Part shown: in pieces, positions 7,579 to 25,885 of the stretch
Numbering within the stretch: position 1 is the stretch's first letter
Layout: every line of letters begins with the position of its first letter
Source of the DNA: Chamaesiphon sp.
GTDB lineage: Bacteria; Cyanobacteriota; Cyanobacteriia; Cyanobacteriales; Chamaesiphonaceae
Assembly: GCA_965246715.1 (NCBI GenBank)
Contig: CBDFFH010000003.1
Location: 1 to 26,630 of the forward strand
Direction: 5' to 3'
Length of the DNA: 26,630 nucleotides
Made by a program: the position numbers and the translations under genes
Notes under the pieces: model-generated
The model's input: the letters and a program-made list of their open reading frames with translations, nothing else
Told to the model about the DNA's origin: nothing
Databases searched by the model: none

Positions 7579-10500
7579 TTAGCCCTGACAGAGCCAAGCA
7601 CCCCAGAACATCGGATGTTGGAGAGGATGTTCGGCACCTTGCAGATGGGTGATTTTAGCGTCAATCTCTGCCAAAATAATTCGTCCTTGCTCGATCGATA
7701 GTAACTCTGCACGGGTAATATTACGGATGTAGGATTGTGCCTGTTGGAGACAGATCGCGGCTGGTTGTCCGGCTCCGCCTTGATAATATTCAAAGAATTT
7801 ATCCATCAGCAGAATCGAAGTCTGGACTGGAACATCCCACAGGCTGACAATCAGCGTGGCAACTCCGGCAATTGCTAGAGCGCGTTTGAGTCCGAATACC
7901 CCTTCACCTTGGCGGACGGAACCCGTGCCGCTACTACAGGCAAGGAGGATGGCGATCTGCGTCCCCCACAAGTCTAGTTCCAGCAGATCGCGGGCGGTGA
8001 ATAAACCACCTTCTAATTCTGATGGGAGTTCGCCACCTGCGAGACTGGTGTTGAAACCAGCTAGGGCTAAACCCGCATCCCGCATCGGATCGGGATTGTC
8101 GCCGCCTTCTGGATCTAAACCATGTAGTCCGTGGGTGGCAATCACTAGATATTGAGGCGATCGCAATTGGCGGAGATTAATCGCCTGAGCGTCATTACCC
8201 AAATGGGGTTTAATGCCCAAGGATTGAGCGATTTTTTGAGCGAGGGGTTCGGTTTGGGGGAGGGGGGTGAGTTTATTACTGAGAGCGGACATCGAGCCGG
8301 ATTTTTCAAGCTCGGTAGTGGGTAGGGGTGCGATCGCGCGAGTGGGAAAATCGTAGTTAGGATTAGCCGCAATCGTACCTACACTGGCGGGTGCAGGTGG
8401 CTGTGGGCGGGTGCGAAGATCGCGGCTGGCAGAAACATAGCGAATCGATAATCGATCGCTTAAAATCCCATTTTCGACGGGTAAAATTCCGAAGGGGACG
8501 AGGTTTAAATCGCCATCGGGGGCAAAAATGACTTCTGTGGAGTGAGTCGGGAGATCGAGGGGATCGAAGATGGTTTGACGCAGATCGATCGCCTGGGCTT
8601 GATAAGGAGCAAGCAGTCGCGCCGGATCTTTCCGTGGGGCACGATCGTACTTACCCATTGACTCGAAACCAGGTAAATCGCTGGCGACTTGGCGAAATTT
8701 AGTAATCAGTTCGTCGATTTCTGCGGCGGCACCGAGTTTGACTAATTTAATTCCGCCCAATCCTTCATGGGTGAGGATGAAGGCGAGATAGTGGGGTTCT
8801 CCTTTCTTTCCAGTAACTAAATCGTAGAGATCGAAGCGAACGAAATCGACGAGGGTAGCACCAGCAGGGACGAGGAGATTAATTGCTTGACGATCGATCG
8901 TAGTTTCCATCAACTCGGCGCGAGGGACTTTAGCCGCGATCTCTTTTTCTGCTCGATCGAGTCGGGTTTGGAGGCGGTTAACCTGTTGTTGGTAGGCTTC
9001 GATATTCTCTGTCGGTGGTGTTTGGGTAATTTGGTGGAGTTGTTGGCGCAGTTGTTGCCGTTCGGCGGCTAGTTGTTGTAATTGAAGATCGTCACTTCGG
9101 GAGATGGCAGCACTCAGGGCAATTTCTACGGCAGTCGCGATCGATTTCCACAGATAGATGACTTCAAAAGCTTGAGCGATTGATTCGGAGTCATCAGCTA
9201 AATATTGCCAGAGACAGGAGAGTAAATAATTAATTGTGCTTTGTCGGCGATCTCGATAGGATAGTCGTTCTAACTCTGTTTTCCCTTGAAAGCGATCTGC
9301 TAAAACTTTAATATCTACCCGTGCAGCGTCAGCTAAATGCGTTCCAGCCTCCGTGAATCTTTCTTGTTTAACTAGTAAGAAGGCATAATTTTGATAACTA
9401 GCGACCAACTCTGGATGTCCCCGATCTACAAATAACTGGCAACGGATAATTAGAGATTTATGCAAAAAAGGTTCAGCTTCTACCAATTTTCTTTGGTCTA
9501 TATAAAACAGAGCTAAATTATTCAGACTGGCAGCAAGTGTTTCATTCGTATTATTTTCAAATAACTGGAGACAGATATCTAGAGACCTTAGCAAAAAAGT
9601 TTCGGCTTCTGTCCATTTTCCGTAGGATTGGCATAATCTTGCCAAATTGTTCAGACTGATAGCGAGACCACTATTGGCCTTACTACCAAACAACTGACGA
9701 AAGATAGCTAAAGATTCTAGCAAAAGAGGTTCGGCTTCCATCCATCGTTCTTGTTTTGAATACAATTGTGCTAAATTGCTCAGAGTATTGCCAAAGTCGT
9801 TATTCACATTATTACTAAACAACTGACGAAAGATAGCTAAAGATTTTAGTAAAAGGGGTTCGGCTTCCATCCATCGCTCTTGTTGTGAGTACAACTGTGC
9901 CAAATTGTTCAGACTGATGGCGAGGTCTTTATTTACTTTTTCCCCAAATAACTGATGACGAATACTTAGAGATCTTAGTAAAAGAGGCTCCGATTCTTCC
10001 CATCTTCCTTGTCCTAAATATAACTGTCCCAAATTATCCAAACTGGTAGCAAGGTCATTATTAATAGTTTTGCCAAATAACTGGTGACGAATATTTAAAG
10101 CTTGTAGTAAAAGAGGTTCAGCGTCTATCAATCGCCCTTGGGATAAGTACAAGGCTGCTAAATTATTTAGACTGGTGGCAAGGTGATTATTAATAGTCTT
10201 GCCAAATAGCTGGCGACAAATATTTAGAGCTTCTAGTAAAAGAGGTTCAGCTTCAACCCATCGCTTTTGATATTGATACAAGGCTGCCAAATTATTCAGA
10301 CTGGTCGCGAGATCGTTATAAAGTGTTTTGTTAAACAACAAGCGACGAATAATGATTTCTAATAATATAGGTTCAGCCAACAATTGGCGACGAATATTTA
10401 AGGCTTCTAGTAAAAGAGGTTCAGCTTCTATCAATCGTCCTTGGGATGAGTACAAGGTTCCCAAGCTATTTAAACTAATAGCGAGGTCATTATTGGGGAT

Positions 10501-10695
10501 ATTGCCAAATAACAGGCGATGAATACTTATTATGGATTTTAGAAACAGAGGTTCAGCGTCTTCCCATCTTCCAAGGAATAAGTATAAGTATGAGTATGCC
10601 AAATTATTCAGAATATTGGCAGAATTGTTATTAGGGTTGGGGAAAAGATATCGAACAATAGTCAAAAATTGTTTAGCAATTGATAGCTTCATCAA
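7579..10695 (-). CDS. TPR-repeat CHAT-domain (caspase-like) protease; the true start is probably ATG 10756, with a frameshift near 10680
   Basis: About nine 44-aa TPRs (LATSLNNLAALY...GR..EAEPLLL.AL.I), then a CHAT domain with APDGDLNLVPF, catalytic His in IATHG, catalytic Cys in LLACSSG, plus SLWDV and HPMFWGAW. Confidence 0.92.
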   Translation of the reverse strand: MMKLSIAKQFLTIVRYLFPNPNNNSANILNNLAYSYLYLFLGRWEDAEPLFLKSIISIHRLLFGNIPNNDLAISLNSLGTLYSSQGRLIEAEPLLLEALNIRRQLLAEPILLEIIIRRLLFNKTLYNDLATSLNNLAALYQYQKRWVEAEPLLLEALNICRQLFGKTINNHLATSLNNLAALYLSQGRLIDAEPLLLQALNIRHQLFGKTINNDLATSLDNLGQLYLGQGRWEESEPLLLRSLSIRHQLFGEKVNKDLAISLNNLAQLYSQQERWMEAEPLLLKSLAIFRQLFSNNVNNDFGNTLSNLAQLYSKQERWMEAEPLLLESLAIFRQLFGSKANSGLAISLNNLARLCQSYGKWTEAETFLLRSLDICLQLFENNTNETLAASLNNLALFYIDQRKLVEAEPFLHKSLIIRCQLFVDRGHPELVASYQNYAFLLVKQERFTEAGTHLADAARVDIKVLADRFQGKTELERLSYRDRRQSTINYLLSCLWQYLADDSESIAQAFEVIYLWKSIATAVEIALSAAISRSDDLQLQQLAAERQQLRQQLHQITQTPPTENIEAYQQQVNRLQTRLDRAEKEIAAKVPRAELMETTIDRQAINLLVPAGATLVDFVRFDLYDLVTGKKGEPHYLAFILTHEGLGGIKLVKLGAAAEIDELITKFRQVASDLPGFESMGKYDRAPRKDPARLLAPYQAQAIDLRQTIFDPLDLPTHSTEVIFAPDGDLNLVPFGILPVENGILSDRLSIRYVSASRDLRTRPQPPAPASVGTIAANPNYDFPTRAIAPLPTTELEKSGSMSALSNKLTPLPQTEPLAQKIAQSLGIKPHLGNDAQAINLRQLRSPQYLVIATHGLHGLDPEGGDNPDPMRDAGLALAGFNTSLAGGELPSELEGGLFTARDLLELDLWGTQIAILLACSSGTGSVRQGEGVFGLKRALAIAGVATLIVSLWDVPVQTSILLMDKFFEYYQGGAGQPAAICLQQAQSYIRNITRAELLSIEQGRIILAEIDAKITHLQGAEHPLQHPMFWGAWLCQG

Positions 10696-10832
10696 TTTTT
10701 CCTTGAGAATACAGTTGATTCACTTGTCCATCGAGTGTATTCCACTCGTCAAGCATAAATATCCCCCTCACCTTCGAGCACCGAGCGTCAAAATGGCTTG
10801 GGTTAGTAGTCTTTCGATAATGTATCCACTCT

Positions 10833-11096
10833 TTAGGCTGTTTTATCTACCTGGGGTGGTTTGTTTTTAAGTGCTATTAGAGTTGCGGTGGGAACAAAAC
10901 CGTCTATTTGCTCGGTTGGATCGAGAGCTTCTAAGGCATACTATAAACCACTCGACCCAAACATTGCATTAGCAAGAACACAACCTACGACTTCTCCTGA
11001 AAATGGCAAGACGAACAGCGCACGACCGAGCGTAAAATCGAAAATATCATACAGAATACATACGATAAATTTGTGATGCCATTCCATAGTTCGCAC
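10833..11096 (-). pseudogene. Small membrane-protein gene interrupted by one in-frame TAG (10941-10943)
   Basis: AGGAGA RBS then GTG/ATG. Translation from ATG 11087: MEWHHKFIVCILYDIFDFTLGRALFVLPFSGEVVGCVLANAMFGSSGL*YALEALDPTEQIDGFVPTATLIALKNKPPQVDKTA*. It sits in the operon between two co-oriented genes. Confidence 0.55.
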
Positions 11097-11202
11097 GGCT
11101 AATTATCTCCTGACAATGATGTGAATGATTAAGGATCGAGGACTAGACGACAGATATACGTAAGTATGAGCGAAGATCGTCGTAAAAATTGTATCATTCG
11201 TC

Positions 11203-12063
11203 CTAGCTCACCCGATAGAAAGTATGTAACACTTCACCCTGGTGCAATTCCACTTGAGTCAACAACTCTGCCAACTGCACGGCATTTAACTGCAATACTC
11301 GATCTCGCGCCTCTTCTAACCAACTCAGAATTGGCATCTGCGGGACAATCCACCCCCACCATTCCTCTTTTCCAGGCTCTGCCCCCAGATAGGCGTAGGG
11401 AGATTCTGGCTGGGGTATACTCATTTCCCCTGGACTGACATTAATACTGGGAGCCTGTGTTGAAGGACAAACACAGTAAACTACCTTCGCATCGTCATAG
11501 TTTAGCAACAATACCTGTCCCATCCCTTCACTGACGATCTTAAATTTCAGCCCATCAATCCCTTGGGGCACTGCTTGTAAAAAAGATTTGGGCTGAGGAT
11601 TTTTTAAGGCACCTGCTTTCTGAACCTCATTCTCCGCAATATACGCGCCCATTCGCTCTGGTGCATATTTTCCTAACTCTTTCAATTGAGTCCACAACGC
11701 CTCAACCCCCAATTTACTCCGCCCCAACAGTCGCTCTTCCCATTGGGGATACTCCTGTTTCAACCATTGCCACACCACATCTACACGCTCTCCGGTGGCA
11801 TTTTCAAAGTCTACCCCCAAGTCAGTTAATTTATCATAGACATTTCCACTAATGCGCTTGTAATTATCTCCACCAATTTGCTTGTCAGCATAGATAGATT
11901 TTTTGATTTCTGGGATCGACTGATGTTCTCGTTGGCGATCGAATTGATAGGTAAATACCTCGATTTCTCCTGGCGTTAATTTCGCCTTTACCGCCAGATC
12001 GCTCAGAAATGAATACCATCGAAAATTAACTTCTATCATAAAGACACCTTCACCTACTAACAA
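11203..12063 (-). CDS. Hypothetical protein: N-terminal HTH-like region and C-terminal DUF4384-like beta domain
   Basis: 286 aa. LTPGEIEVF...VYDKL HTH-like start; C-terminal GQVLLLNYD...YCVCPS...IPQ resembles DUF4384-type domains. Confidence 0.55.
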   Translation of the reverse strand: MLVGEGVFMIEVNFRWYSFLSDLAVKAKLTPGEIEVFTYQFDRQREHQSIPEIKKSIYADKQIGGDNYKRISGNVYDKLTDLGVDFENATGERVDVVWQWLKQEYPQWEERLLGRSKLGVEALWTQLKELGKYAPERMGAYIAENEVQKAGALKNPQPKSFLQAVPQGIDGLKFKIVSEGMGQVLLLNYDDAKVVYCVCPSTQAPSINVSPGEMSIPQPESPYAYLGAEPGKEEWWGWIVPQMPILSWLEEARDRVLQLNAVQLAELLTQVELHQGEVLHTFYRVS

Positions 12064-12160
12064 TAATTAAGCCATGACTTTCATCAAATAATCATTATTT
12101 GCAACTGGATAGTAAAACAAATATTGATGAATAAATTCAGGCTGATTTGTAACTTTCACT

Positions 12161-12211
12161 AAGATAACTCATTCCAGTCAGAATTTACCATACCCTATAC
12201 GGGTATATTTT
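12161..12211 (-). promoter_or_regulatory. Conserved promoter-like element, copy A (upstream of the CHAT operon)
   Basis: 39/51 ungapped identity, counted by eye, to the reverse complement of 16470-16520. Confidence 0.55.
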
Positions 12212-12478
12212 TTTGGACTTATATTATCCCATTGTTGTGAGTATAAGTCGATTGGCTCCGAGCAATAGTATATAGTCCCGACCGAGATCGTAGCCCTTAA
12301 ACTTTGCCACCTGAAAAACGTTTTGATGATAGTTTTCTCTATTTTAGATCTAGAGTACCTAAAAAAACACCAAAAATAATATACCCAATCGGATCTTTTT
12401 TTGCCGTTATAAATGGCGATATAGTCGTGCTTGAGATAACAAATTTGTTTAAATTCAACAAATTAAGTCTCATGTCCG

Positions 12479-12536
12479 ATCGAAATTTGCCAAACAGCAG
12501 AAATCGATCGAGATAAGTAAATAGAACAGCCAAAAA
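12479..12536 (+). promoter_or_regulatory. Repeated leader element ATCGAAATTTGCCAAA...CAGAAATCGATCG.GATAAGTAA.TAGA (other copies at 12931-12980 and 15282-15340)
   Basis: Three similar copies, each ending about 15-25 nt upstream of a start codon. Confidence 0.6.
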
Positions 12537-12560
12537 CCTACACCAAGGTAAATCACCATC

Positions 12561-12818
12561 GTGTCAAATCAACTATCTCGCCGTCCGCTCCGGTTATCAG
12601 CACTAGCTCTGCTGGCTCTGATTTCGATCTCACTCGTCGGTTGCGACGAAAAAACCGGACAACAAGATTCAGGACAACAGGAGCAAGACGCTCGGAACAG
12701 AACGCAACAAGAACGAGATCGTCAAGCAGAACGAGATCGTCAGCCTACCCCTGCTCCTACCCCTGTTACACCAGTTGGTGGAGCTTGTGGACTCTATGGT
12801 AATGGCCCCTGTTATTAA
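12561..12818 (+). CDS. Small lipoprotein with a Cys-containing C-terminal motif
   Basis: Basic n-region, hydrophobic h-region, lipobox LVG-C, Gln/Arg-rich linker, PT repeats and terminal GGACGLYGNGPCY. Confidence 0.7.
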   Translation: MSNQLSRRPLRLSALALLALISISLVGCDEKTGQQDSGQQEQDARNRTQQERDRQAERDRQPTPAPTPVTPVGGACGLYGNGPCY

Positions 12819-12850
12819 ACCCACATTCCGCACTTCACTTTTTCAATGAC

Positions 12851-12887
12851 GTAGGGTGCGTTACGGCAATAGCCTAACTAACGCACC
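12851..12887 (+). repeat. GTAG-family REP-like palindrome
   Basis: GTAG-GGTGCGTTA...TAACGCACC. Confidence 0.6.
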
Positions 12888-12997
12888 AATTCTCGTCCTA
12901 GCTGGACACCAAACCTCGAACTGAGACTCAATCGAAAATTGCCAAATCACAGAAATCGATCGCGATAAGTAATTAGATCCAACAAGGAGAATCGATC

Positions 12998-13345
12998 GTG
13001 AACTTCCACAAGCAACTCAATCAATTAGTTAGCCGCGACGACATCATTACTAATCTCCCTGAAGTTGAGATTTTTTGTTCGGCAACAGACCAAAATCACC
13101 TACTCAGACGCTTACAACAACGAGCGATTAATTGGGACATGATCGGACTGGCAATCGCCTACGGTAAATTTCAATATTATTCCCAAGCCCAAACTTGGAC
13201 GCTATTCGATCGCAGTCTGATTCATACTCCCTACGCTCGATTCATCGACAAGCTACGCGGACTGCGAATCATTGCTACTAACTACTCCAGCGATGACACC
13301 CTCAGAGTCAGTACCGCTTACTGGGCATACGACTTGAGAAGATAA
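12998..13345 (+). CDS. Hypothetical protein (possible small RNase/toxin-like fold)
   Basis: AAGGAGA RBS and GTG start. HLLRRLQQRAI near the N-terminus and VSTAYW at the C-terminus loosely recall DUF4258/BECR-type patterns. Confidence 0.6.
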   Translation: MNFHKQLNQLVSRDDIITNLPEVEIFCSATDQNHLLRRLQQRAINWDMIGLAIAYGKFQYYSQAQTWTLFDRSLIHTPYARFIDKLRGLRIIATNYSSDDTLRVSTAYWAYDLRR

Positions 13346-13399
13346 TTCTCACGTAGTTTTTACTATTTAGATTCAATTAACCTACCGGAAACCACCATT

Positions 13400-13876
13400 A
13401 TGTCCACTACTTCAATCGCCACTATGTTTAAATCCACTGCTAATTTTTCAACGGTTATTAAAAAGACTACCTTGTCGCTAGCTATGGCTCTAACTTGCTT
13501 ACATCCAAGCATGGTGTTAGCTCAATCTAACTACGAACTTCAACAATTAGTTGAGTATCGCCAAAACTATCAAATGCAAGCAAACAATTTGCGGGCAAAA
13601 ATGATGTTTTACATGCTGTCAAATCCTCAAGCATCTGCGGCTGTATTGGCTTCAGGAGCGGGACTTGCCGCATTTTTAGAAGAAAACCTCGATTCAGGTA
13701 CTAAAGCCGCCTTGTTGTTAGCAGCAGCGATTGGTGGTGGTTACTGTCTCGATCGTGCCAATTTTGAAACCTGTGCCGACGTTGCTGCCACTTTGACTGC
13801 ATATGCGATCGAGATCGGCAAGTACGATCGAGCAATTAACTCGATATCTCAGCAAATTAGCTCTTTACAAGAATAG
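13400..13876 (+). CDS. Secreted helical protein with a central hydrophobic Gly/Ala hairpin
   Basis: Signal-peptide-like segment ending VLA-Q, hydrophobic AAVLASGAGLAAFL...AALLLAAAIGGGYC and coiled-coil flanks. Confidence 0.65.
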   Translation: MSTTSIATMFKSTANFSTVIKKTTLSLAMALTCLHPSMVLAQSNYELQQLVEYRQNYQMQANNLRAKMMFYMLSNPQASAAVLASGAGLAAFLEENLDSGTKAALLLAAAIGGGYCLDRANFETCADVAATLTAYAIEIGKYDRAINSISQQISSLQE

Positions 13877-13999
13877 CAAAATAGTAAGACAATTTTATTT
13901 TCTTACCCCATTAAACTGTATAAATAGTTAGACAGCGGACAGCAGGTGATGTTCTAAGCTGTCTAGATAACCCAGTTCACTCAAGGAGACTTTATTTGA

Positions 14000-14383
14000 A
14001 TGAGTACCATGACCTTTGAAGCAATCCCGGTGCAATGGACAGCCCTTCAAGCATTTGAGGAGATTGAACCAATCAATGATGCCGATCTGGAATGCTTGGC
14101 TGAAGTTCGGGAGGTTCTCAAGAAATATGGCAAACGAGAGCGATTCGGTGTAACGCTCTTGCACAAACACTTCGACATAGCTGAAGATGAAATCCTTGTT
14201 GAGACAACTGATGTAGAAGCCCGTCTTCTAACCACCAAACCGATGAAGAAAGACTGTGTTGGTAACACTGTAGAGACGACTTGGATGCTGCTTGATGGAG
14301 AAAACCGAGCAATGTTGGGGTGTCGAACGGTCTGTTCTCCAAATATCCACGGTAACCACCACCCATTCCATCAATCGACGTAA
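14000..14383 (+). CDS. Conserved hypothetical protein with a Cys/His-rich C-terminus
   Basis: AAGGAG RBS; motif CLAEVREVLKKYG..ERFGVTLLHKHF....DEILVETTD; ends CRTVCSPNIHGNHHPFH. Confidence 0.7.
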   Translation: MSTMTFEAIPVQWTALQAFEEIEPINDADLECLAEVREVLKKYGKRERFGVTLLHKHFDIAEDEILVETTDVEARLLTTKPMKKDCVGNTVETTWMLLDGENRAMLGCRTVCSPNIHGNHHPFHQST

Positions 14384-14405
14384 CTATTTTTAGTCTGGTG
14401 CTACA

Positions 14406-14840
14406 GTGAAATCAGTTTGCTGTAGCGTCTCTCAAGATGTAGACCCTGTGCAAAACTTATGTGGGTCTATATCTCCATGTGATTCAGATTCAACAATTCA
14501 GACTTTTATGCCCATCTTAAACAGACGCGTATACGTATATGTTGGTATCGGTGCCCTGATTGCATTATTACCACTTGCTTCATTTGCCCTAATTGCGCTT
14601 GAAGTGATAATGATATATCAGATCGCCAAATCTCACGATGAGGTTCATCTTTGGGAGCTAGTTTGGTACTGTTCAATTACAGAAGCGGTGAGTTTCTTCT
14701 TGAAATTCTTGGCATTATGGCTGCACTTTATACCAGTAATTGGACAAATAGCAAACTCAATCGTAGCTGGTGGATTTATATTCTTTGTATACAATCTAAC
14801 CGACGATCACTATAAAAAGAAAAAACTTTCCGATAAATAG
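14406..14840 (+). CDS. Small membrane protein (DUF697-like); likely start ATG 14508
   Basis: Three hydrophobic segments; LEVIMIYQIA and FIPVIGQIANSIVAG motifs. Confidence 0.6.
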   Translation: MKSVCCSVSQDVDPVQNLCGSISPCDSDSTIQTFMPILNRRVYVYVGIGALIALLPLASFALIALEVIMIYQIAKSHDEVHLWELVWYCSITEAVSFFLKFLALWLHFIPVIGQIANSIVAGGFIFFVYNLTDDHYKKKKLSDK

Positions 14841-15262
14841 TGAGGCTAAATACTCAAAATTTTATTGTTTCACAGTTGCGATATACTTCGTTAAGGTCGT
14901 GTATTCGCTCTAATGTGCAGTCGGTTATCGAGTGCTAGAGGTTGTCAGTTTTTGCACGCCCTACCCTGACTGCTCAGCGCACTGGGCGGACAGACCACAA
15001 TATCACTTTTGAGTAGCAGTAATCGTCATCCTAACCTCTCCCACTGATTTTAAGATCGAACCATTCACTCGTGAGAACGCTCGCAACTCGAATTTACAGG
15101 TAAGTTTCTATTCGCTCCCGATCCATTCTAACCTAGCGAGAAGGCAGTATTTGAATCGATCGAACCCTCAGATTTAGCATGGCAGTCAATGAAAGGTTTG
15201 TCGATCGAAAGCCCCCACACCCGCAGGGATGTCTGCGCCAAGGCATCCCCGCCGAATACCCC

Positions 15263-15612
15263 AACCTCGAACTGAGACTCGATCGAAATTTGCCAAAACA
15301 CAGAAATCGATGGAGATAGATAAGTAGAACAGACAAAAATAGGACGAAAAAATCATGAACTTTCACAAGCAACTCAATCAATTAGTTAGTTAGTCGCGAC
15401 GACATCATTACTAATCTCCCTGAAGTTGAGATTTTTTGTTCGGCAAAAGACCAAAATCACCTACTCAGACGCTTACAACAACGAGCTATTAATTGGGACA
15501 TGAGCCGAGGTTGCTGCTACTTTGACTGCATATGCGATCGAGATCGGCAAATACGATCGAGCAATTAACTCGATATCTCAGCAAATTAGCTCTTTACAAG
15601 AGTAGCGAAATA
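15263..15612 (+). pseudogene. Decayed, internally deleted copy of 12912-13884
   Basis: 15263-15503 matches 12912-13142, with a 4-bp TTAG duplication causing a stop. It is fused directly to 15504-15612, which matches 13775-13884. Confidence 0.85.
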
Positions 15613-15721
15613 GCATGTAAATCCTATTCATTCCAACCGATTAAGCTGGAGAAGGCAAGATCATTTAAAGCCACTCCAGTTCTCCAGCTCTCTCGATAAA
15701 TAGGATTTACATGCTATTTCG
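15605..15721. mobile_element. MITE-like element of ~117 bp
   Basis: 23-bp terminal inverted repeat CGAAATAGCATGTAAATCCTATT plus inner AGCTGGAGAA/TTCTCCAGCT. Its last 52 bp are repeated at 16309-16360. Confidence 0.65.
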
Positions 15722-16308
15722 AGATACCGATGACCCATTTGTTTGACTTTTTTCAACACTTGGATGCCACCATCTCGTTCAGTGATATTGGCTGCTGTCA
15801 CCCATACCCGTAAGACTAAGCCGAGTGTGTCTACTGTCACAAACCGCTTTCTGTGATTTGCTTACCTGTTATGCCTCACTGACCATTGCGGCACTTTTGA
15901 CACTTTGGCTATCGATTGCAGCCTCTGATGGGCTGGGTTGACGCTCTTGTTCTATTCTTACCCATGCTCTCAACCGATCGTGGATTTTGACCCATGTTCC
16001 ATCCTTGCGCCAGTCTCGAAAATAAGTATATACCGTCTGCCATGCTGGGAAATCTCCTGGTACGCTCGCCAACGACATCCTTCACACAGTAGATAGAAGA
16101 TTGCGTTGATTACCTCTGCGATCTCCACCTCTCGTGGACGACCACCTGGCTTTGGTGCTGGAATCATCCCACTAATTAATTCAAATTGGTCTGTGGTCAG
16201 GTTACTAGGATATGCTTTACTCATTCTGCTCACTTAGCACTACTCATTATCTATCTGTAGTCTATACCGAGTGAGCTTTTTTACCAACTGACTTTTCAAA
16301 CATCCTCT
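15722..16308 (-). mobile_element. Truncated, frameshifted IS5-family (IS1031-like) element
   Basis: Left end AGAGGATGTTTGAAAAGT (16308-16291). Transposase fragments MSKAYPSNLT...GGRPREV...GCRWR, PGDFPAWQTVYTYF...IDSQSVK and RKRFVTVDTLGLVL are broken by frameshifts; the 3' half is missing. Confidence 0.9.
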
Positions 16309-16469
16309 GCCACTCCAGTTCTCCAGCTCTCTCGATAAATAGGATTTACATGCTATTTCGCATATTTGCCTATTCGGGCTGCTCAATACAAAATGTAAAA
16401 GTGTAGTTATTAAGCCACTTCAGTTCTCTCGATCGAGTAAGATTTTAGTGACTTTTTATATAACCTATG

Positions 16470-16520
16470 AAAATTTGCCCTATGCGGGTATGGTAATTTC
16501 TGGATTGAATGAGTTACCTT
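16470..16520 (+). promoter_or_regulatory. Conserved promoter-like element, copy B (upstream of the MACPF-like operon)
   Basis: Inverted homolog of 12161-12211; contains CCC-N5-GGGTATGGTAA. Confidence 0.55.
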
Positions 16521-16621
16521 TGTTGACAACTAAAAGTTAGTCCAGATTGCATCATCATTAATTATTTTTTATTAAATCAATCGAAATAGTAGGCAAACCA
16601 AACAGTCAACAAGCCAGAGAC

Positions 16622-16837
16622 ATGCGACGCGATTGGGAAGATCGAACTCTCGGACACGATCGTCCCCAAACTCCCCCACCCCAAGGCTGCGGATGTTGTA
16701 TGGGCAAAGGAGCCGCCATACTGGTTTTAATCTCAGGGGTAAGTCTCCTTTCAACCCAAGTAAATCAGCAAAAATGGGAACATAAACCTGTTCCCCAAGA
16801 ACAAGTCAATCTTTTTTCTCAAGGAGATGGCAAATAA
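16622..16837 (+). CDS. Small hypothetical single-TM protein with a CGCC motif
   Basis: 71 aa, co-oriented with and 35 nt upstream of the next gene; GCGCC followed by a hydrophobic stretch. Confidence 0.45.
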   Translation: MRRDWEDRTLGHDRPQTPPPQGCGCCMGKGAAILVLISGVSLLSTQVNQQKWEHKPVPQEQVNLFSQGDGK

Positions 16838-16872
16838 CTATAACAATAAATTAATACTGGAGATTACAAAAA

Positions 16873-18003
16873 ATGCTTCGTTTTTTTAAGTTTGTTGGTT
16901 TTGCTATCCTGGGGTTTCTCTACCTAATTTTCTTGGCAGCTAATCCCCAGGCGGCACTTACATGGAGTGCGATTTTCATTGTCCTATATTTGATCGACCG
17001 AAAGCAGATAGCAGCAAAGCAGCGTAAACAGGCGATGATTCTTGCCCAAAAGCAAGAAAAGGAGGCAGCAAAGCAGCGTAAACAGGCGATGATTCTCGCC
17101 CAAAAGCAAGAAGAGGAGGCAGCAGAGCGGCGTAGACAGGAGGCTCTAGTACGTGAAGCGGCGGAGCAACGTAAGCAAGCGATTGTCTTAGCACGACAAC
17201 GCAAAGATTTATATGAATACGATCCTTCTATTCAGGAATCGGATAGACGCTCGACAAAAAATATGTGGGAAAATCCCGCACTATGGGCAGAAGCAATCGA
17301 TGCCCGTTATGGAGTTGCCAAAAAAAATGTACTAGATGCGGAGTTAGTACTTAATGATGATGTAGAACAGTTCGATCGATACAGACGACAATTGCAAGTT
17401 GAATTAATACCTAAATATGAGGCTGCAATTAGACCATTTATCGAGGATTTACAGCTTAGAGATGAGGATATTCCAACGCCAAGAGAATTAAAAATTGCGA
17501 TTGATTTTGTTTATCCTAGTAATTTGCTGCCTAATGTAATTCATCAAGATTTAGCAAGTTTGTCTCAAACTTTTGGGAATAGCCTCAGAAATGTATTGCA
17601 GGGCAAAGATATTATGAAGCTTCAGAAAGGAGATATGACTTCTATTGCTATTATGGCAGCATTCGCTGCAATTTCTTACCTGTATACCTTATCTACACAG
17701 CGTACAAAACTTGAGAAAGTACAAGCCGATGTCGATAAGCTCTGCGAACAAATTAGCGGAGCGATCAAAACCTATGGTAGAGCCTCGGAGGAAATTAAAC
17801 ATTTAAAATCAGTCCACCAAGTTGCCATCAATTATATGATGCGTTATCTTGACATTGCGCTCGAACTATCCACCCAAGGAAAAACATTCTCCGATCTCCA
17901 AGCAGCAGAGCGAAAGGCGATTGAAACTTGTTATCGGGGTGGGCAGTCATTAAAGCAGATAATGAAACAAGACGTAATCAAACCTATTGAAAATACAAAT
18001 TAG
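16873..18003 (+). CDS. Membrane-anchored coiled-coil hypothetical protein
   Basis: GGAG RBS; two N-terminal TM segments, 18-aa tandem repeats and an internal hydrophobic helix (IAIMAAFAAISYLY). Confidence 0.75.
   Translation: MLRFFKFVGFAILGFLYLIFLAANPQAALTWSAIFIVLYLIDRKQIAAKQRKQAMILAQKQEKEAAKQRKQAMILAQKQEEEAAERRRQEALVREAAEQRKQAIVLARQRKDLYEYDPSIQESDRRSTKNMWENPALWAEAIDARYGVAKKNVLDAELVLNDDVEQFDRYRRQLQVELIPKYEAAIRPFIEDLQLRDEDIPTPRELKIAIDFVYPSNLLPNVIHQDLASLSQTFGNSLRNVLQGKDIMKLQKGDMTSIAIMAAFAAISYLYTLSTQRTKLEKVQADVDKLCEQISGAIKTYGRASEEIKHLKSVHQVAINYMMRYLDIALELSTQGKTFSDLQAAERKAIETCYRGGQSLKQIMKQDVIKPIENTN
17011..17118 (+). repeat. 54-bp in-frame tandem repeat (2 near-identical copies plus degenerate copies)
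   Basis: Encodes AAKQRKQAMILAQKQE(K/E)E twice. Confidence 0.85.
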
Positions 18004-18009
18004 AAAAAT

Positions 18010-18480
18010 ATGAACGAAGAAATTGTCCCGAATAAAATTTATGCCGAACTCGTTAATAATCCACAAGTTGCAGAGTATGTTGACTTAGCATTTCAGCTAG
18101 CTCCATTGGCTAACCAAGCACTTGAATTAGCTTTTCAAGCTCTTCCATTGGTTAACAAGGGATTGGATTTAGCAGAACAACTGGATCGAGAAAAGACAAC
18201 TCGATTAGCAATTCAAGAAAATGCCGATCTTCAACGTAGAACGATCGAGCGTCGCATGACGCAGCTTGATGCTGAATTGGAGGCAGATTTAGAGAACAAC
18301 AAAAACGTTGTTGCTACGAGTATGCGAGTTTTCGAGAAAATGGTTGAAAACGGTCATATCGACCAAGCGATGATTTTACACGAACGAATTATTAGCAAGC
18401 TCTCAGGACGTGCGAGTATTGCCGCTGATAAATTCAATCAGAACAATCCTGATGGAGAGGTTAAATTTTACACTACTTAG
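18010..18480 (+). CDS. Helical coiled-coil hypothetical protein
   Basis: 156 aa, 6 nt after the preceding gene; internal LAFQ.APL.N repeat. Confidence 0.7.
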   Translation: MNEEIVPNKIYAELVNNPQVAEYVDLAFQLAPLANQALELAFQALPLVNKGLDLAEQLDREKTTRLAIQENADLQRRTIERRMTQLDAELEADLENNKNVVATSMRVFEKMVENGHIDQAMILHERIISKLSGRASIAADKFNQNNPDGEVKFYTT

Positions 18481-18677
18481 GAGTTGAACGGTATAGAGCA
18501 AACTCGAATAGCATTAGATGGAAGCTGCGTGGTTGCATTTTACAATCAAATTCTCATGGCTTGCACTGAATCGCTCGCGTCTAATTTGCTCTGTCTAGAG
18601 GGACAAACGATCGAAACGTTATATTTTAAGTAATTCAATGCTTTAGGCGAGAGGCTTCGCCAACAACATAAAATTGT

Positions 18678-20339
18678 ATGGCTAACAGAGACTACTTCGA
18701 TGGTATGGATCTAGGTGTGGGTTACAATCCGCTCACTGGTGCGGCTTCCACTTCCTGGGTAGATTTTGGAGAACTGACAACAGCGGGTGGGCAAACTGGG
18801 CAAACGGCAGAGTTGCTATTCAAACGGGTGACTTCGAGCGCAGAACTGAGCAAGGTGTTGGGGATGGATGCCGAAGTCAACCTGAGTGCTTCCTGGTTTA
18901 AGATCGGCGGTTCTTTCAAAGCCAAGGCTTGCACTGAGTCGAGCCGAAAAATCAACGAGTATTCTACTTTCTCGGTGCTGTATGTGAAAGTACGGGGGAT
19001 GGCGCAAAATCTTCGCGATGTCGATCTCAAACCCCAGGCGATCGATTTCATTACTAATAAGGGGCTGGAGGCGTTTTTTCGACGAGCTGGTTATGAATAT
19101 ATATCTGGCATCATTCCTGGCGGTGAGTTCATCAGTACGATCGAGATTATTTCCAACGACATCGAAACCAAGGAAAAAATCGATGCTCACCTCAGTGCCC
19201 AAATCTCCTGTAGCACTGTAATTCCTAAGATTGGAGCGATAGACGCGAATGCCGAACTCAAATCTAAGTTTGCAGAGTTAGCTAAATACAATAACGTGCG
19301 GATTGAAGCGCGATGCTATCGCAAAGGCGGCGTGGGGGCAATTTCGACTACTCCCGAAGAAGCTCTGGAGTACGCTGTCAATTTTCCAGCTTCCGTGCAA
19401 CAGTCGGCGGATATCTTACAAGTTATTTGCAAGCCCTACCATGAATTAATATCTTTCCCTGACGAGTTTGACACGATCGCGGTAGAACGCCAACAACGGG
19501 TGTTGAGAAGCCTCTGGGATCGCTACCAGCAAGTCACCAAATCGATCGCGGATGTGGAATATATTCTCCAGTATCCGATCCAGTTTGATGGGGTGGAAGA
19601 AGGCATCCTCAGAGCGGGTAAACAACAGCTAGAACAGCAGTTAGACGAGATTGCCGATCGAGCGATGAATTATGCCAAGAATCCCACGCAGATTCGGGTT
19701 GAAGGTAGTGATTTTGCAACTATTCTACTATCCTTGCCACCCCGTAAAATCACGCCCCAGCCCGAACCGCCGCTTCAGACTGAAGATTCGATCGATGCAG
19801 TTGCGCTCGAATCCGCTCAAGGGATAGATTATCGCCAACTGCGGGATTTACTCAAAGCTGAAAAATGGCAAGAAGCAGACAAAGAGACACGAAAAGTAAT
19901 GCTCAAAGCTGTCAATCGAGAAAGTGAAGGCTTTGTGGATGTTGATAGCCTAAAAAAATTCCCATGTCAGGACTTGCGTACAATCGATCGTCTTTGGGAA
20001 ACTGCGAGTGTAACTGTCTCGGCGATCGATAATGAGGAAGCCCAACGAGCGATTCAAATCGTTCAAGGCTTAACTCGCTGTCTCAACGAAGGCGATATCT
20101 ACGCCGGACGCGTGACGCGAATTATTCCGATCGGTGCCTTCGTGGAGCTACTACCAGGTAAAGAAGGGATGATCCATATCTCCCAACTGGCCGATTATCG
20201 TATCGGGAAGGTTGAAGATGAAGTCGGCGTTGGCGATGAAGTGATCGTCAAAGTTCGTGAGATCGACAATAGAGGTCGCGTTAATCTGACTCGATTGGGC
20301 ATTCATCCCGATGAAGCTGCTGCGGCGCGACGAGGATAA
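18678..20339 (+). CDS. Chimeric protein: MACPF/CDC-like N-terminal domain + coiled coil + partial GUN4 domain + PNPase C-terminal (KH end/S1) segment
   Basis: [10 protein letters not shown] and [19 protein letters not shown] (MACPF-signature-like). GUN4 start [14 protein letters not shown]...WQEADKET...[13 protein letters not shown] (19803-19997). Then [37 protein letters not shown]...[16 protein letters not shown], which matches the cyanobacterial PNPase C-terminus as I recall it. Confidence 0.75.
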
Positions 20340-20499
20340 CTCGATCGTCTCGATGTGTAGGTTGGGTATAACAAACATGAAACATAGTAGCTCAACCACC
20401 TTCATAGTCATCTTGCACGATCGTTTGAGATGTATCGATCTATGTCTATCCATAGCAAAGCGTCGAATCTGCCAAATCAATTGTTCGATTGCGAATAAC

Positions 20500-21045
20500 T
20501 GTAGCAACCTGCAATACTAAATCCTTGAGACCGCAATCATCGCTTTTTTGAGACCGAATTAACTGCAACTATAAGTGCAGTTGAGACCACATTAACTGCA
20601 ACTGAGACCGAATTAGTTGCAACTGAGACTGCAATCATCCAGTTGAGACCACATTAACTGCAACTATAAACTTAATAATTTAGATCGAGTCTCAGACTCA
20701 GATTCACCATCCGATCGACCTGCTAAGTTAATAAACTGGTTGCCATCGATCGAATCTTGACTTAGATAAAATTACCGAGTTGTTTGCCCTGCGAAATGGC
20801 GGCTGAACGCTTTGTATCAACTTAATTGGCAGCAGTAAAGAAAACGGACGTTTTCTTTACTGCTGCCCGCCCCAATTTATAGTTGCAGTTAATTCGGTCT
20901 CAAATTTAGTATTGCGGGCTGGTTGCATTTAATTCGGTCTCAGTTGCAGTTAATTCGGTCTCAAGCGACCGGATAGTTGCAGTTAATGTGGTCTCAAAAT
21001 TGCGATGATTGCAGTCCTGAGCGATTAGTATTGCAGGTCGCTACA
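20500..21045. mobile_element. Non-autonomous mini-transposon-like element with ~172-bp inverted arms and TGT...ACA termini
   Basis: Ends TGTAGCAACCTGCAATACTAA and TTAGTATTGCAGGTCGCTACA (1 mismatch). Each arm has four TGAGACC(GA/AC)ATTAACTGCAACT-like repeats at equivalent positions. Confidence 0.65.
20828..20867. terminator. Perfect 18-bp stem hairpin in the core of the mini-element
   Basis: GGCAGCAGTAAAGAAAAC-GGAC-GTTTTCTTTACTGCTGCC. Confidence 0.5.
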
Positions 21046-21046
21046 G

Positions 21047-21074
21047 GTAGGGGCAATTCATGAATTGCCCCTAC
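21047..21074 (+). repeat. GTAG-family REP-like palindrome
   Basis: GTAGGGGCAATTCATGAATTGCCCCTAC is a perfect palindrome. Confidence 0.7.
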
Positions 21075-22405: not shown

Positions 22406-23293
22406 ATGATTGGAAGTAGGGAACGATCTAAATATCCCTTTCGCTCTAGTCAGTCCTCCATGTCGGCGCAAGTCCCCACAGGCACGTTCACAGTGACTAA
22501 TCTCAATCCCCTCACCGCCACACCACCGATCGAGGTGCCATTAAAAAATGCGCCCCTGGTCAGAGCGATCGCCCAAGTCCGGTTTCCACCGATTCTATCG
22601 ATCGAGCAACAGGAGTTTGTCGGTTCCTTCCAAGAGGCAATTCGCGAAAAATACCCGATTTTACAGCCCGTCCAAACCCCTGGTCTACTATTTAACCCTG
22701 AAGGTGCGATGCTTGCGCCTACACCTCAAACCATTTGGTGCTTTTGGAGTGCAGATCGAACTTGGCGGATTTCCTTAGCAAGCAGTACCGTGGCGATCGA
22801 AACGACTAAATATACCAGTCGCAGTGACTTCCTAGGACGCTTAGAAAGTTTGCTCGCGACCCTCGATCGCTGCTTTCACCCGTCACAGATCGAGCGGTTT
22901 GGATTGCGCTATATCGACCGAGTAGTGGGTCGAGAGTTGCAAGATATATCCCTACTGATTAGACCGGAAATGGCTGGCATTGTCTCTAGCGAACTTCAAG
23001 CATACATCCATCAAGTTTTGCACGAGTCACTATTTATCTTGCCGTCGGGAGCGGGACAGATCGCGGCGCGATGGGGTACGATTCCTGCCAATGAAACTTA
23101 TGACCCCTATGAAATCGAGGCTATTGGCGAACGGAGTTGGCTGCTCGATTTAGATATATCAACGGTGAAAGAGCAGGAATTTAAGGTTGAATCCCTGATG
23201 CAACAAGCGCACAATTTTACCGAGCGACTTTATACCTTCTTTCGCTGGGTGGTAAATGATGAATTTCTCAGACGCTATGGGGGTGAAGTATGA
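22406..23293 (+). CDS. TIGR04255 family protein (the real start may be the GTG at ~22493)
   Basis: LKNAPLVRAIAQVRFPPI, YTSRSDF, IERFGLRYIDR, WLLDLD and FFRW motifs. Confidence 0.8.
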   Translation: MIGSRERSKYPFRSSQSSMSAQVPTGTFTVTNLNPLTATPPIEVPLKNAPLVRAIAQVRFPPILSIEQQEFVGSFQEAIREKYPILQPVQTPGLLFNPEGAMLAPTPQTIWCFWSADRTWRISLASSTVAIETTKYTSRSDFLGRLESLLATLDRCFHPSQIERFGLRYIDRVVGRELQDISLLIRPEMAGIVSSELQAYIHQVLHESLFILPSGAGQIAARWGTIPANETYDPYEIEAIGERSWLLDLDISTVKEQEFKVESLMQQAHNFTERLYTFFRWVVNDEFLRRYGGEV

Positions 23294-23898
23294 GTACTCT
23301 TTTAGACAAAACGACAGTAATTCGGGACACTGGCTATCGCTATTGGTTAGCTCCCCTCAAGATGACGACTAGTGGGGTCAAACTACCCACGACGATCTCG
23401 CCAACACAACCCGCAACTCCACCAGTCCGATTACCACAGCAAGCAGTTAATGAATTAAGAAAGTTGAGTGGGTTAACTTGGGAGCAACTGGCTTGTCTGT
23501 TTGATGTTTCCCGCCGCAGCGTGCATTTCTGGGCGAGTGGGCAGCCGCTAGCTGTAGCCCATGAGGAAAAGTTGAATCGAATTTTAGACGCGGTGCAGTA
23601 TATCTCGCTAGGTAGCGCGAGTCTCAATCGCAGTCTGTTAATGGGACTTGGTAAGGACGGTAGATCTTACCTAGAACTACTAGCAGCGGGGGAATATGCG
23701 GCAGTCAAACGGCTGCTCGGTGTTGGCAATGCACACACCAAACCGCAATTAGCACCATTAGCTCCAGCAGCGGACATAACGCTCGTGCTACCCAATCCAG
23801 CGGATCTGGTGGATGCCCTGCAAGATCCGATCCATCGCGAGGTTGGCAAGTCAAAATCGGCAAAAAGTGTGAGGAGTCGAAAGCCAAGTGACGATTAA
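23290..23898 (+). CDS. XRE-type HTH protein (candidate antitoxin or regulator)
   Basis: ELRKLSGLTWEQLACLFDVSRRSVHFWASG helix-turn-helix; ATGA overlap with the upstream gene. Confidence 0.8.
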   Translation: MSTLLDKTTVIRDTGYRYWLAPLKMTTSGVKLPTTISPTQPATPPVRLPQQAVNELRKLSGLTWEQLACLFDVSRRSVHFWASGQPLAVAHEEKLNRILDAVQYISLGSASLNRSLLMGLGKDGRSYLELLAAGEYAAVKRLLGVGNAHTKPQLAPLAPAADITLVLPNPADLVDALQDPIHREVGKSKSAKSVRSRKPSDD

Positions 23899-24742
23899 CG
23901 AACCTAACAGTTGGATTCCAGATACCGATGCCGCTTTAGAACAGTGGTCTCAAGGGGATTGTACGATGGGAGCAGATTGTTGGTTCGTGACTCGCTTCGA
24001 TCCGCAACGTCCGCTAACACCCGATGCGGCGGACGTTGTAGCTATATCCGCCGAAGCTGACTTAACCGAATCCTCAGTCAGCGGTTTTGTGGTGGTTACG
24101 CAAACCTGCGATCTCGTCCGCTCTTGTGCGGAACGTCCCTTCGTTGAGGTCGCTCCGTTGGTCGCAGTTGACGACCAGTATTTACAAGAGATCCAACGCC
24201 TGAAAAGACCTCGCTATGCCTATATTGCTGGAGTTGCCGAATTTAATCTCGTAGCGGATTTAGATCGGGTGATGACGGTCGAAAAGGCTGTTGTCGCCAG
24301 ATGGGAAAGAATATCTGGCTGTCGAAGCGATGCGGATACTCGATTGCTGGGAGAAGCATTAGCCCGAAAACGCAGTCGATTTGCTTTCCCCGATGACTTT
24401 AATGAGTTCGCTAAAGATCTGCAAAAGCGAATGCAGAAGCGGCATGATAAAGCTGATGATGATGGTGTGGGTTTACGCGCCCTCCGTGAAATTAGAGTAC
24501 GAGCCGCACCAGCTTGGGATGCGGAGCAAGTAGAACTCATGTTTTGGTTCATCCGCGCCGAGGCAGATGTTCGCTTTAAAAATAAAGCATGGGATGAATT
24601 ACTAGGTGAGTGGCTGAAATTACTGCCGCCATCTGGTCGGTTTAGTTCGGTAGATGGAGCGGTAGTATCGCTAGACGATATGACAGCTCAGGAATATCTG
24701 CAAAGCGACCGACTCGATCTCGATCGTCTCTCTTCACATTGA
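23888..24742 (+). CDS. Conserved hypothetical 'QGD...VVVTQTCDL' protein (candidate toxin)
   Basis: WSQGD, VVVTQTCDLVR, VEVAPL and RKRSRFAFPDDF motifs; 11-nt overlap with the upstream gene. Confidence 0.7.
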   Translation: MTINEPNSWIPDTDAALEQWSQGDCTMGADCWFVTRFDPQRPLTPDAADVVAISAEADLTESSVSGFVVVTQTCDLVRSCAERPFVEVAPLVAVDDQYLQEIQRLKRPRYAYIAGVAEFNLVADLDRVMTVEKAVVARWERISGCRSDADTRLLGEALARKRSRFAFPDDFNEFAKDLQKRMQKRHDKADDDGVGLRALREIRVRAAPAWDAEQVELMFWFIRAEADVRFKNKAWDELLGEWLKLLPPSGRFSSVDGAVVSLDDMTAQEYLQSDRLDLDRLSSH

Positions 24743-24764
24743 TCTTCTCCTGAATTATCTTCCT

Positions 24765-24868
24765 TAAACATCTAAGCATCTAAACATCTAAACATTTATA
24801 TGTTTAGATGTTTAGATGTTTTAAGCAGTCATCTATTATAGGCATCTAAATGTTTAAGCGTTTAAATG
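24765..24868. repeat. 8-bp TAA(A/G)CAT(C/T) direct and inverted repeats: par centromere/operator 1
   Basis: TAAACATC TAAGCATC TAAACATC TAAACATT followed by inverted (G)ATGTTTA copies upstream of parA. Confidence 0.75.
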
Positions 24869-24898
24869 ATATAATCAGCTCGGTATCTATAGTTAAAA

Positions 24899-25495: not shown

Positions 25496-25773
25496 GCAAG
25501 AAAAATGGTAGCAGATTCGATACTTTATTTAGTGAAGCTGGAGCTAGTCGGACTGACTTATCAGAAAATGAAACAGAGGAAGTTTTAGAGCTTGGGGCAA
25601 AAACTCCATCCTCTAAACAAACTACCAAGAGTACCGATCCTGACTATATTCGCGCCACTATTTACCTCCCTAAAGAGATGCACAGACAAATTAAGGTAGC
25701 AGCGATTGTTGAAGAGCGAGAGATGAGCGATATTGTCGCTGAGGCAATCAGTCGATATTTTTCAGGCATCTAA
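25492..25773 (+). CDS. Small ribbon-helix-helix centromere-binding protein (ParG/CopG-like)
   Basis: Overlaps the parA stop; disordered N-terminus; C-terminal RATIYLPKEMHRQIK...MSDIVAEAISRY RHH pattern. Confidence 0.8.
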   Translation: MSKKNGSRFDTLFSEAGASRTDLSENETEEVLELGAKTPSSKQTTKSTDPDYIRATIYLPKEMHRQIKVAAIVEEREMSDIVAEAISRYFSGI

Positions 25774-25820
25774 GCATTTAAACATTTAAGCATCTAAATA
25801 TTTAGATGCTTAAATGTCTA
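25765..25820. repeat. 8-bp repeat array: par centromere 2
   Basis: GGCATC TAAGCATT TAAACATT TAAGCATC TAAATATT TAGATGCT TAAATGTC is the same unit as the array upstream of parA. Confidence 0.72.
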
Positions 25821-25828
25821 TTGGTACT

Positions 25829-25885
25829 GGTTATGGTGGTTATAGTGGCTATGGTGGTTATAGTGGCTATGGTGGCTATAGTGGT
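25829..25885. repeat. 9-bp tandem repeat GG(T/C)TAT(G/A)GT x6
   Basis: GGTTATGGT GGTTATAGT GGCTATGGT GGTTATAGT GGCTATGGT GGCTATAGT GGT. Confidence 0.85.

Follow-up and report, generated by a model that had tools for sequence, protein, structure and literature searches.

A 51-bp element stands at the start of two operons on the stretch of DNA analysed here, the whole 26,630-nt contig C3 (hereafter the window) of a 6.1-Mb, 55-contig cyanobacterial assembly from Chamaesiphon sp. The leftward operon encodes a DUF4384 regulator, a small membrane protein and a TPR-CHAT caspase-like protease, while the rightward operon encodes three membrane or helical proteins followed by a MACPF-like chimera. The element carries a pattern of dyads, the regulator and the protease form an obligate pair in the related loci fetched, and the loop motifs of these two proteins co-vary among homologues. 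We favor a reading, to which we assign a probability of about 40%, in which the element, as an operator or promoter, places both operons under a protease-gated regulator. The TPR array would sense a trigger, the TPR-CHAT protease would cut the regulator in its linker, and the element would act as the operator or promoter bound by the adjacent DUF4384 regulator. CHAT would control the rightward membrane-protein operon via transcription and not by cleaving its products, possibly in a defence role.

A 51-bp element with two dyads

The two copies of the element, with their dyads, lie at the following positions.

12161..12211, (-) strand: element copy A, with the ATG (12039) of the DUF4384 regulator 122 bp downstream; dyads at 12190-12206 (dyad 1, 5-bp spacer) and 12171-12184 (dyad 2, 6-bp spacer)
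16470..16520, (+) strand: element copy B, with the rightward operon 101 bp downstream; dyads at 16475-16491 (dyad 1) and 16497-16510 (dyad 2)

An earlier note on this DNA had reported the two copies as inverted and identical at 39/51 positions, and this was borne out, the alignment being ungapped. In shuffled intergenic regions the best 51-mer match had at most 31 identical positions (mean 28.3, 150 shuffles), compared to the 39 observed. The edges of the element are sharp, with in-register identity outside of only 1-8/20. The same note had considered that the motif might precede many unrelated genes; instead, only two copies were found in the assembly, with the next nhmmer match at an E value of 1.7, and a 34-position core that matches 34/34 at both copies reached at best 23/34 elsewhere in the genome. 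No copy was present in 26 other genomes of the genus, and the two partial matches in 12 sister-genus genomes were both inside a coding sequence. There was no exact match in viral contigs and no match in Rfam, and a sigma-70 scan gave fewer matches than expected by chance (11 vs 19.6). Cyanobacterial CRISPR repeats resemble the element weakly (best E 0.007), a likeness that we put down to a common CCC..GGG hairpin and discounted.

Within the element, the spacers of the two dyads vary and the arms are kept or changed in compensating pairs. Copies A and B differ at 8/11 spacer positions vs 4/40 others (Fisher p 1e-4). One of these four non-spacer differences, base 16475 in copy B, reads A and not T in 4/4 public runs, which would raise the identity to 40/51. 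Public read runs X1-X4 were compared with the assembly; X1 is possibly the source sample and so not independent, and missing cover (the TPR array in X3 and X4, MACPF in X4) was not counted as evidence. A third allele of copy A, found in runs X3, X4 and X6 from two studies, carries eight changes. Four of them form two compensating pairs in dyad 2, three are spacer changes, and the last disrupts an outer pair. The compensating pattern had a probability of about 0.005 by simulation, though this value and the Fisher p are optimistic, given that the dyads and the pair list were defined after inspection. The pattern of arms and spacers fits either a protein operator or an RNA leader, and we take the element to show selection on its dyad arms. 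The candidate operator shared by both operons is what is new from the window, and it is unusual in coming with natural compensating variants.

The DUF4384 regulator and its TPR-CHAT protease

The leftward operon comprises three genes, with two short motifs that bear on the relation between the first and the last.

11203..12039, (-) strand: 278-aa regulator with a variable N-terminal domain (predicted DNA-binding), a linker and DUF4384
11602..11625, (-) strand: linker motif, regulator residues 139-146, A142-G143, which aligns with the [L/M]-G motif of the family; predicted CHAT cut site
10833..11096, (-) strand: predicted small membrane gene with an in-frame TAG at 10941-10943, codon 52
7579..10759, (-) strand: TPR-CHAT caspase-like protease gene; TPR array and His-Cys dyad both retained in the main frame, 10692-7579
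8650..8664, (-) strand: CHAT loop, residues 678-682, M680-G681; in homologues it carries the linker motif of the cognate regulator

The regulator had matches in 45/401 genomes of the order, its own genome included, and up to 20 kb was fetched around the 20 best-scoring of the 47 foreign matches. TPR-CHAT was present in all 20 of these loci, and downstream on the same strand in 18/18 that could be measured (two split-gene loci excluded). The regulator is a conserved partner of TPR-CHAT, obligately paired with it in the loci fetched, and two annotated plasmids carry the same pair. DUF4384 itself is weak in the window protein (E 0.026, below the cut-off), while 25/28 family members match it, with a best E value of 5e-17. 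For 4/28 members a Cro/C1 helix-turn-helix (HTH) replaces the window-type N-terminal domain at the same position, and from this family comparison we infer that the N-terminal domain binds DNA. Most differences from the nearest allele, P0088, fall in this part, with identity of 78/100 here and 129/133 C-terminally. The regulator and CHAT profiles gave no match to any solved structure, and a search for related loci with the regulator alone gave nothing useful. In the parts of the literature consulted, neither the CHAT/DUF4384-regulator pair nor a CHAT-MACPF system was described; the neighbourhood may be listed in the source data of PMC7159879 and PMC8195603.

The CHAT domain was matched in Pfam at an E value of 1e-44, and its catalytic dyad, H855 (at 8133) and C920 (at 7938), is invariant in 19 aligned sequences. 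The 5´ end of the gene carries a frameshift: the frame from the ATG at 10759 stops at 10673, and the main frame runs from TTG 10695 or ATG 10692. This second ATG, which follows a purine-rich stretch, could give a nearly full CHAT protein. The contigs of X1 and X2 are identical to the assembly across the frameshift region. The small membrane gene encodes 51 aa before the TAG and 87 aa when read on; it had no homologue in 300 other genomes, and a plasmid search with the 87-aa protein gave nothing useful. With the frameshift and the stop codon, the left operon may be partly decayed in this strain.

For 19 pairs (the window and 18 others, two split-gene loci being dropped), we compared the regulator linker with the CHAT loop. 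A [L/M]-G dipeptide was present in 17/19 linkers and 14/19 loops. Cognate motifs were more alike than shuffled pairs, both across the whole set (235 vs 101+/-29, p 5e-5) and across 7 dereplicated pairs (85 vs 33+/-16, p 0.003), neither comparison being tree-corrected. As described in the consulted parts of two reports, a CHAT protease cuts the Runella gasdermin at a Leu-Gly dipeptide (10.1101/2021.06.07.447441), and for Csx29 orthologues the cut sites are L|D, M|K and A|S (PMC11106740). The DUF4384 regulator is likely a CHAT substrate, with a cut site predicted in its linker by analogy with these published specificities. TPR-CHAT proteases are common in cyanobacteria, mostly without a known substrate, and this locus names a candidate substrate and cut site.

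The closest known arrangement is the type III-E Craspase (Csx29/Csx30, with Csx31 and RpoE/CASP-sigma), in which a TPR-CHAT protein also adjoins a two-domain partner that contains a linker, and in which, according to the section consulted, one Csx30 group ends in DUF4384 (10.1101/2022.08.17.504292). Both have a predicted transcriptional output, and the reported targets of Craspase may include cas1, which compares with three loci described below (L074, L076 and L093). The two systems differ in that the window partner itself has a predicted DNA-binding domain and a motif shared with the protease loop, and in that no Cas7-11, Csx31 or sigma factor, nor any other cas match, was found in the 22 plasmid open reading frames (ORFs) scanned against Pfam or the 17 scanned against NCBIfam and PADLOC, nor a CRISPR array among the repeat families listed for the contig. 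The window pair would work like Csx29/Csx30 signalling but, because no Cas7-11 or array was found, is not a type III-E member. Protease-effector defence modules with Pepco, EACC1, MBL or alpha/beta-hydrolase partners, as presented in the portion of PMC12642450 consulted, likewise show a conserved, adjacent protease-partner pair; there the partner is a latent toxin, whereas the window partner is a predicted regulator.

Possible coupling of the two operons

The genes of the rightward operon are as follows.

16622..16837, (+) strand: 71-aa ORF with a single transmembrane segment; no homologue in 300 other genomes
16873..18003, (+) strand: 376-aa protein with N-terminal transmembrane segments, a long coiled coil and a helical bundle; no Pfam name
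18010..18480, (+) strand: 156-aa helical protein, after the 376-aa gene in 13/14 related loci
18678..20339, (+) strand: MACPF-like chimera of a MACPF-like domain, a coiled coil, the N-terminal half of GUN4 and a PNPase S1 tail

The genes are as the earlier note had described them, with four corrections: the CHAT 5´ frameshift, the TAG in the small gene, the composition of the MACPF chimera and the lack of a common divergent promoter. Five small rightward genes and one insertion sequence (IS) lie between copies A and B, and the two operons are thus without one common divergent promoter.

Recurrence of regulator-upstream sequence was also seen elsewhere. In three loci of one lineage (L074, L076 and L093), a sequence of ~55 bp from upstream of the regulator is found again, in inverted orientation, 3-7 kb away in front of a divergent cas1-cas2 operon (E 0.022, 4.7e-6 and 0.0027), the same layout as in the window. 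For another subfamily, a triple repeat was found upstream of the regulator at 5/6 of its sites in 5 genomes; four of the sites were used for motif derivation and one, at a paralogue, was not. These recurrences suggest that the regulators control their own expression via private operators and that a second copy brings in an output operon. The proposal of co-regulation made in the earlier note is plausible on these grounds, the element occurring only at the two operon starts, showing selection on its dyad arms and having a like layout in 3/20 loci. A wider trans-regulon was rejected: matches to a two-repeat pattern in 5 genomes numbered 23, compared to 17 for controls, and were mostly intragenic.

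Two further arrangements were observed among the related loci. In L107 (positions 1501-1525, genome G159), the triple repeat stands 27 bp before a 460-aa gene that, labeled by eye, resembles SEFIR/TIR plus GUN4; this gene is a possible regulon target. XRE-type DUF4384/TPR-CHAT pairs occur in CRISPR adaptation loci with cas1-cas2 (L071, L074, L075, L076, L092 and L093), most of which encode a 668-aa cas1 fusion with a reverse transcriptase-like N-terminus.

Several observations weigh against control of both operons by the regulator. The third allele of copy A has overall diverged like its flanks (8/51 vs 24/160 listed, with 32/44 differences listed), and it includes the change that breaks an outer pair. 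The two loop motifs of the window itself match weakly, and the window regulator has Ala-Gly, typical of its subfamily, rather than Leu/Met-Gly. No HTH match to the window-type N-terminal domain was found in Pfam or the PDB. The regulator was present in only 3/6 genomes of 376-aa relatives, those relatives are without the element (14 loci), and in the two genomes that could be compared the regulator and the 376-aa homologues had no common upstream sequence. Further, 17/20 related loci lack a comparable recurrence within 10 kb, the three that have one being a single lineage with a different (XRE) HTH, and other leaders are also duplicated on the plasmid (three copies, at 12457, 12909 and 15260). 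Finally, a 197-bp gap ahead of the MACPF gene leaves its co-transcription uncertain. The coupling in the window is local and not a conserved system, because relatives of the 376-aa gene have no fixed tie to the regulator.

At all other loci examined, CHAT/regulator, the 376/156-aa pair and the MACPF gene are found separately, as would be expected if the three modules were independent cargo. The element would then be a promoter or the site of a host factor (SigF-type or other), and its duplication on the plasmid would give the operons shared expression timing. This explanation, which we consider doubtful, also accommodates the other duplicated leaders as well as the sister plasmid C18, on which the same backbone carries other cargo. 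A SigF-type promoter had been suggested in the earlier note from the GGGT core, and both copies do contain the -12 cores GGGT[A/G] and GGTAA of the SigF consensus, seen in the type 3 promoter of Synechocystis pilA1 (excerpt of PMC2532724). This part of the suggestion stands; however, the -32 element of that consensus, [C/T]AGGC, is absent from 10-30 bp upstream of either core in both copies, and the 5-mer GGGTA has 10,566 copies genome-wide. The element further differs from the pilA1 promoter in its two dyads, and a host-factor site should recur on the chromosome, where the element does not. Symmetric compensating changes are unexpected for a sigma-factor promoter as well.

The same changes could instead reflect a structured RNA leader of two hairpins in both mRNAs, with the element acting post-transcriptionally and not as a DNA operator. 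Both copies fold into two sense-strand hairpins (z -1.8 and -2.1), two changes in the third allele are double-compensating, and two one-sided changes between A and B give G-U pairs. The z-scores are modest, however, with 9 and 6 of 200 shuffles folding equally well, and they fall when flanks are added; two other changes break pairs, and Rfam holds no match. If the GGGTA/GGTAA core is a -12 box, most of the element would not be transcribed. We regard the RNA leader as quite improbable.

The earlier note had proposed a third possibility, a gasdermin-like system in which CHAT might directly cleave and activate the MACPF-like or 376-aa membrane protein. Homologues of these genes were not found beside CHAT proteases in the loci examined: a CHAT domain was detected in 0/7 MACPF-homologue loci (3 genomes, 4 of 9 plasmid matches opened; one weak profile match was a TPR-only protein), CHAT, DUF4384 or MACPF in 0/14 loci of the 376/156-aa pair (7/14 being under 5 kb and one ending in a TPR fragment), MACPF or 376/156-aa genes in 0/20 CHAT/DUF4384 loci, and the regulator in 0/3 MACPF-bearing genomes. 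By contrast, 43/50 gasdermins adjoin a protease, according to the part of 10.1101/2021.06.07.447441 consulted. The Runella gasdermin and its CHAT protease resemble the window in the His-Cys dyad, in a Leu-Gly preference that is the family motif here and in a pore-former-like gene on the same replicon, but in the window this gene lies 8 kb off in another operon. Although the catalytic dyad is intact, the MACPF motif is invariant, 70% of 37 homologues retain a Leu-Gly at MACPF residues 61-62 and the top Foldseek rows for the 376-aa model are (non-significant) ClyA-family pore toxins, direct activation is very improbable given the lack of co-occurrence, and neither the soluble portion of the 376-aa protein nor the MACPF-GUN4 linker showed a conserved [L/M]-G.

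Returning to the protease-gated regulator, its fullest form would be a stand-alone, CRISPR-independent cascade. Once the TPR array senses a trigger, CHAT would cut the regulator at a loop motif present in the protease as well, releasing the DNA-binding domain to activate a linked operon via a private operator. The outputs would be swappable, here an uncharacterised membrane-disrupting two-gene module with MACPF-GUN4 and in a Nostoc-type lineage cas1-cas2, in a path from protease to transcription to pore. We regard this extended version as unlikely. If the protease-gated regulator itself is real, it would extend Craspase-like transcriptional signalling beyond CRISPR and explain how unrelated effector operons become attached to one sensor; if not, the locus would be ordinary plasmid cargo with a duplicated promoter.

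Products of the rightward operon and the plasmid

The 376-aa protein has a hydrophobic helix at 255-273 within its helical bundle. It has 29 other close relatives, cyanobacterial where named, and 29 cluster representatives were found in a wide search. Its structure model (pLDDT 82.8) ranks XaxB, ClyA and SmhB first in Foldseek, none significantly (E 0.04-0.25, TM-score about 0.2), and VIA with the same model returned unrelated generic bundles (best Z 8.3). A pore role suggested by this model is a lead only. Matches of PDC-M09A to the family were weak (E 1.5e-4 to 0.011 in 3/12 relatives, 0.005 in the window), ESM Atlas gave unnamed clusters only, and plasmid searches with the protein gave nothing useful. 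We also noted a 54-bp tandem duplication at 17011-17118 in the 376-aa gene, and 14 additional residues in the 156-aa protein compared to its 142-aa relatives, apparently from an internal duplication. In 6/14 loci (L015 and L018-L022), the pair is followed not by MACPF but by a gene of ~155 aa (DUF6232 in L015, the only one scanned) and a 119-aa gene.

The MACPF-like chimera scored 20.4 bits against Pfam MACPF, just below the 21.5 cut-off, which a 97% identical protein (P0032) passes at 22.7. Residues G138, Y141, G148, G149, G217 and G218 are invariant in 37 sequences, giving the Y-X6-GG and second GG of bacterial MACPF proteins (PF01823) and of the cyanobacterial MACPF-GUN4 and MACPF-FGE-sulfatase family, with the first half of the full motif, Y/W-G-T/S-H-F/Y-X6-GG, degenerate. 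The structure model is weak (pLDDT 56.6), and the best Foldseek matches, the MACPF/CDC proteins pneumolysin, C9, stonustoxin and perfringolysin (E 0.007-0.05), were not significant. Most of the 57 relatives are annotated with a C-terminal GUN4 or FGE-sulfatase, domains known from cyanobacterial conflict proteins in the consulted parts of PMC7159879 and PMC8195603; the nearest named one is from Chamaesiphon (79%). The chimera differs from this family in that, among the 57, it alone carries S1, and no hydrophobic signal segment was seen in it. A PADLOC match to PD-T4-6 covered GUN4 only, as did a family search with P0042. The MACPF-GUN4 gene is likely a passenger behind the 376/156-aa pair.

20009..20339, (+) strand: captured pnp 3´ end, the last 113 codons, in place of the second half of GUN4

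The S1 tail (113 aa) is 88-89% identical to the PNPase of 5/5 genomes of the genus, GUN4 is whole in the 97% identical protein, and run X3 has 347 other letters where the pnp piece sits. By this comparison, we conclude that the S1 fusion is recent and strain-specific, and the captured tail illustrates how a MACPF protein can exchange its C-terminal binding domain. There is no full pnp in the assembly; synteny places the host pnp in a gap past the end of contig C47, and a close relative (L007) is 97% identical in the pnp flank and only 85% to the plasmid piece. An assembly artefact, considered as no other pnp is in the genome, was rejected given that an X1 contig spans 17067-20240 without a difference. 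In another locus, L087 (8170-10500), a gene convergent with a TPR gene encodes a fusion of a MACPF-like domain and a septin-like GTPase.

The contig carries plasmid-type genes for replication, mobilisation and partition (Prim-Pol/DUF927, Mob_Pre, ParA) and an integrase, and both of its ends fall within one primase reading frame. Sister plasmid C18 shares the backbone at about 87% (85-88%) identity; it repeats its own first part at ~22.8 kb and is probably over-assembled.

15660..16308, strand not assigned: IS with a 52-bp duplication and at least 6 copies elsewhere in the genome

This IS is a late insertion, because it is missing from the contigs of runs X1-X4. The five small genes between the element copies (12561-14840) gave no clear family in the domain scan. 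The second repeated leader (12457-12533, 12909-12985 and 15260-15336; 68-84% identical) lies ahead of small rightward genes, and 15260-15628 is a deleted duplicate of 12909-13899. A three-gene unit at 22406-24742 (a TIGR04255 protein, an HTH-like protein and a 284-aa unknown) directly precedes parA and the 8-bp repeat arrays at 24753-24875 and 25759-25833. Beside the integrase, 20478-21067 consists of 146-bp inverted arms of short repeats, with similar stretches on C18 and C36, and is likely a resolution or attachment site.

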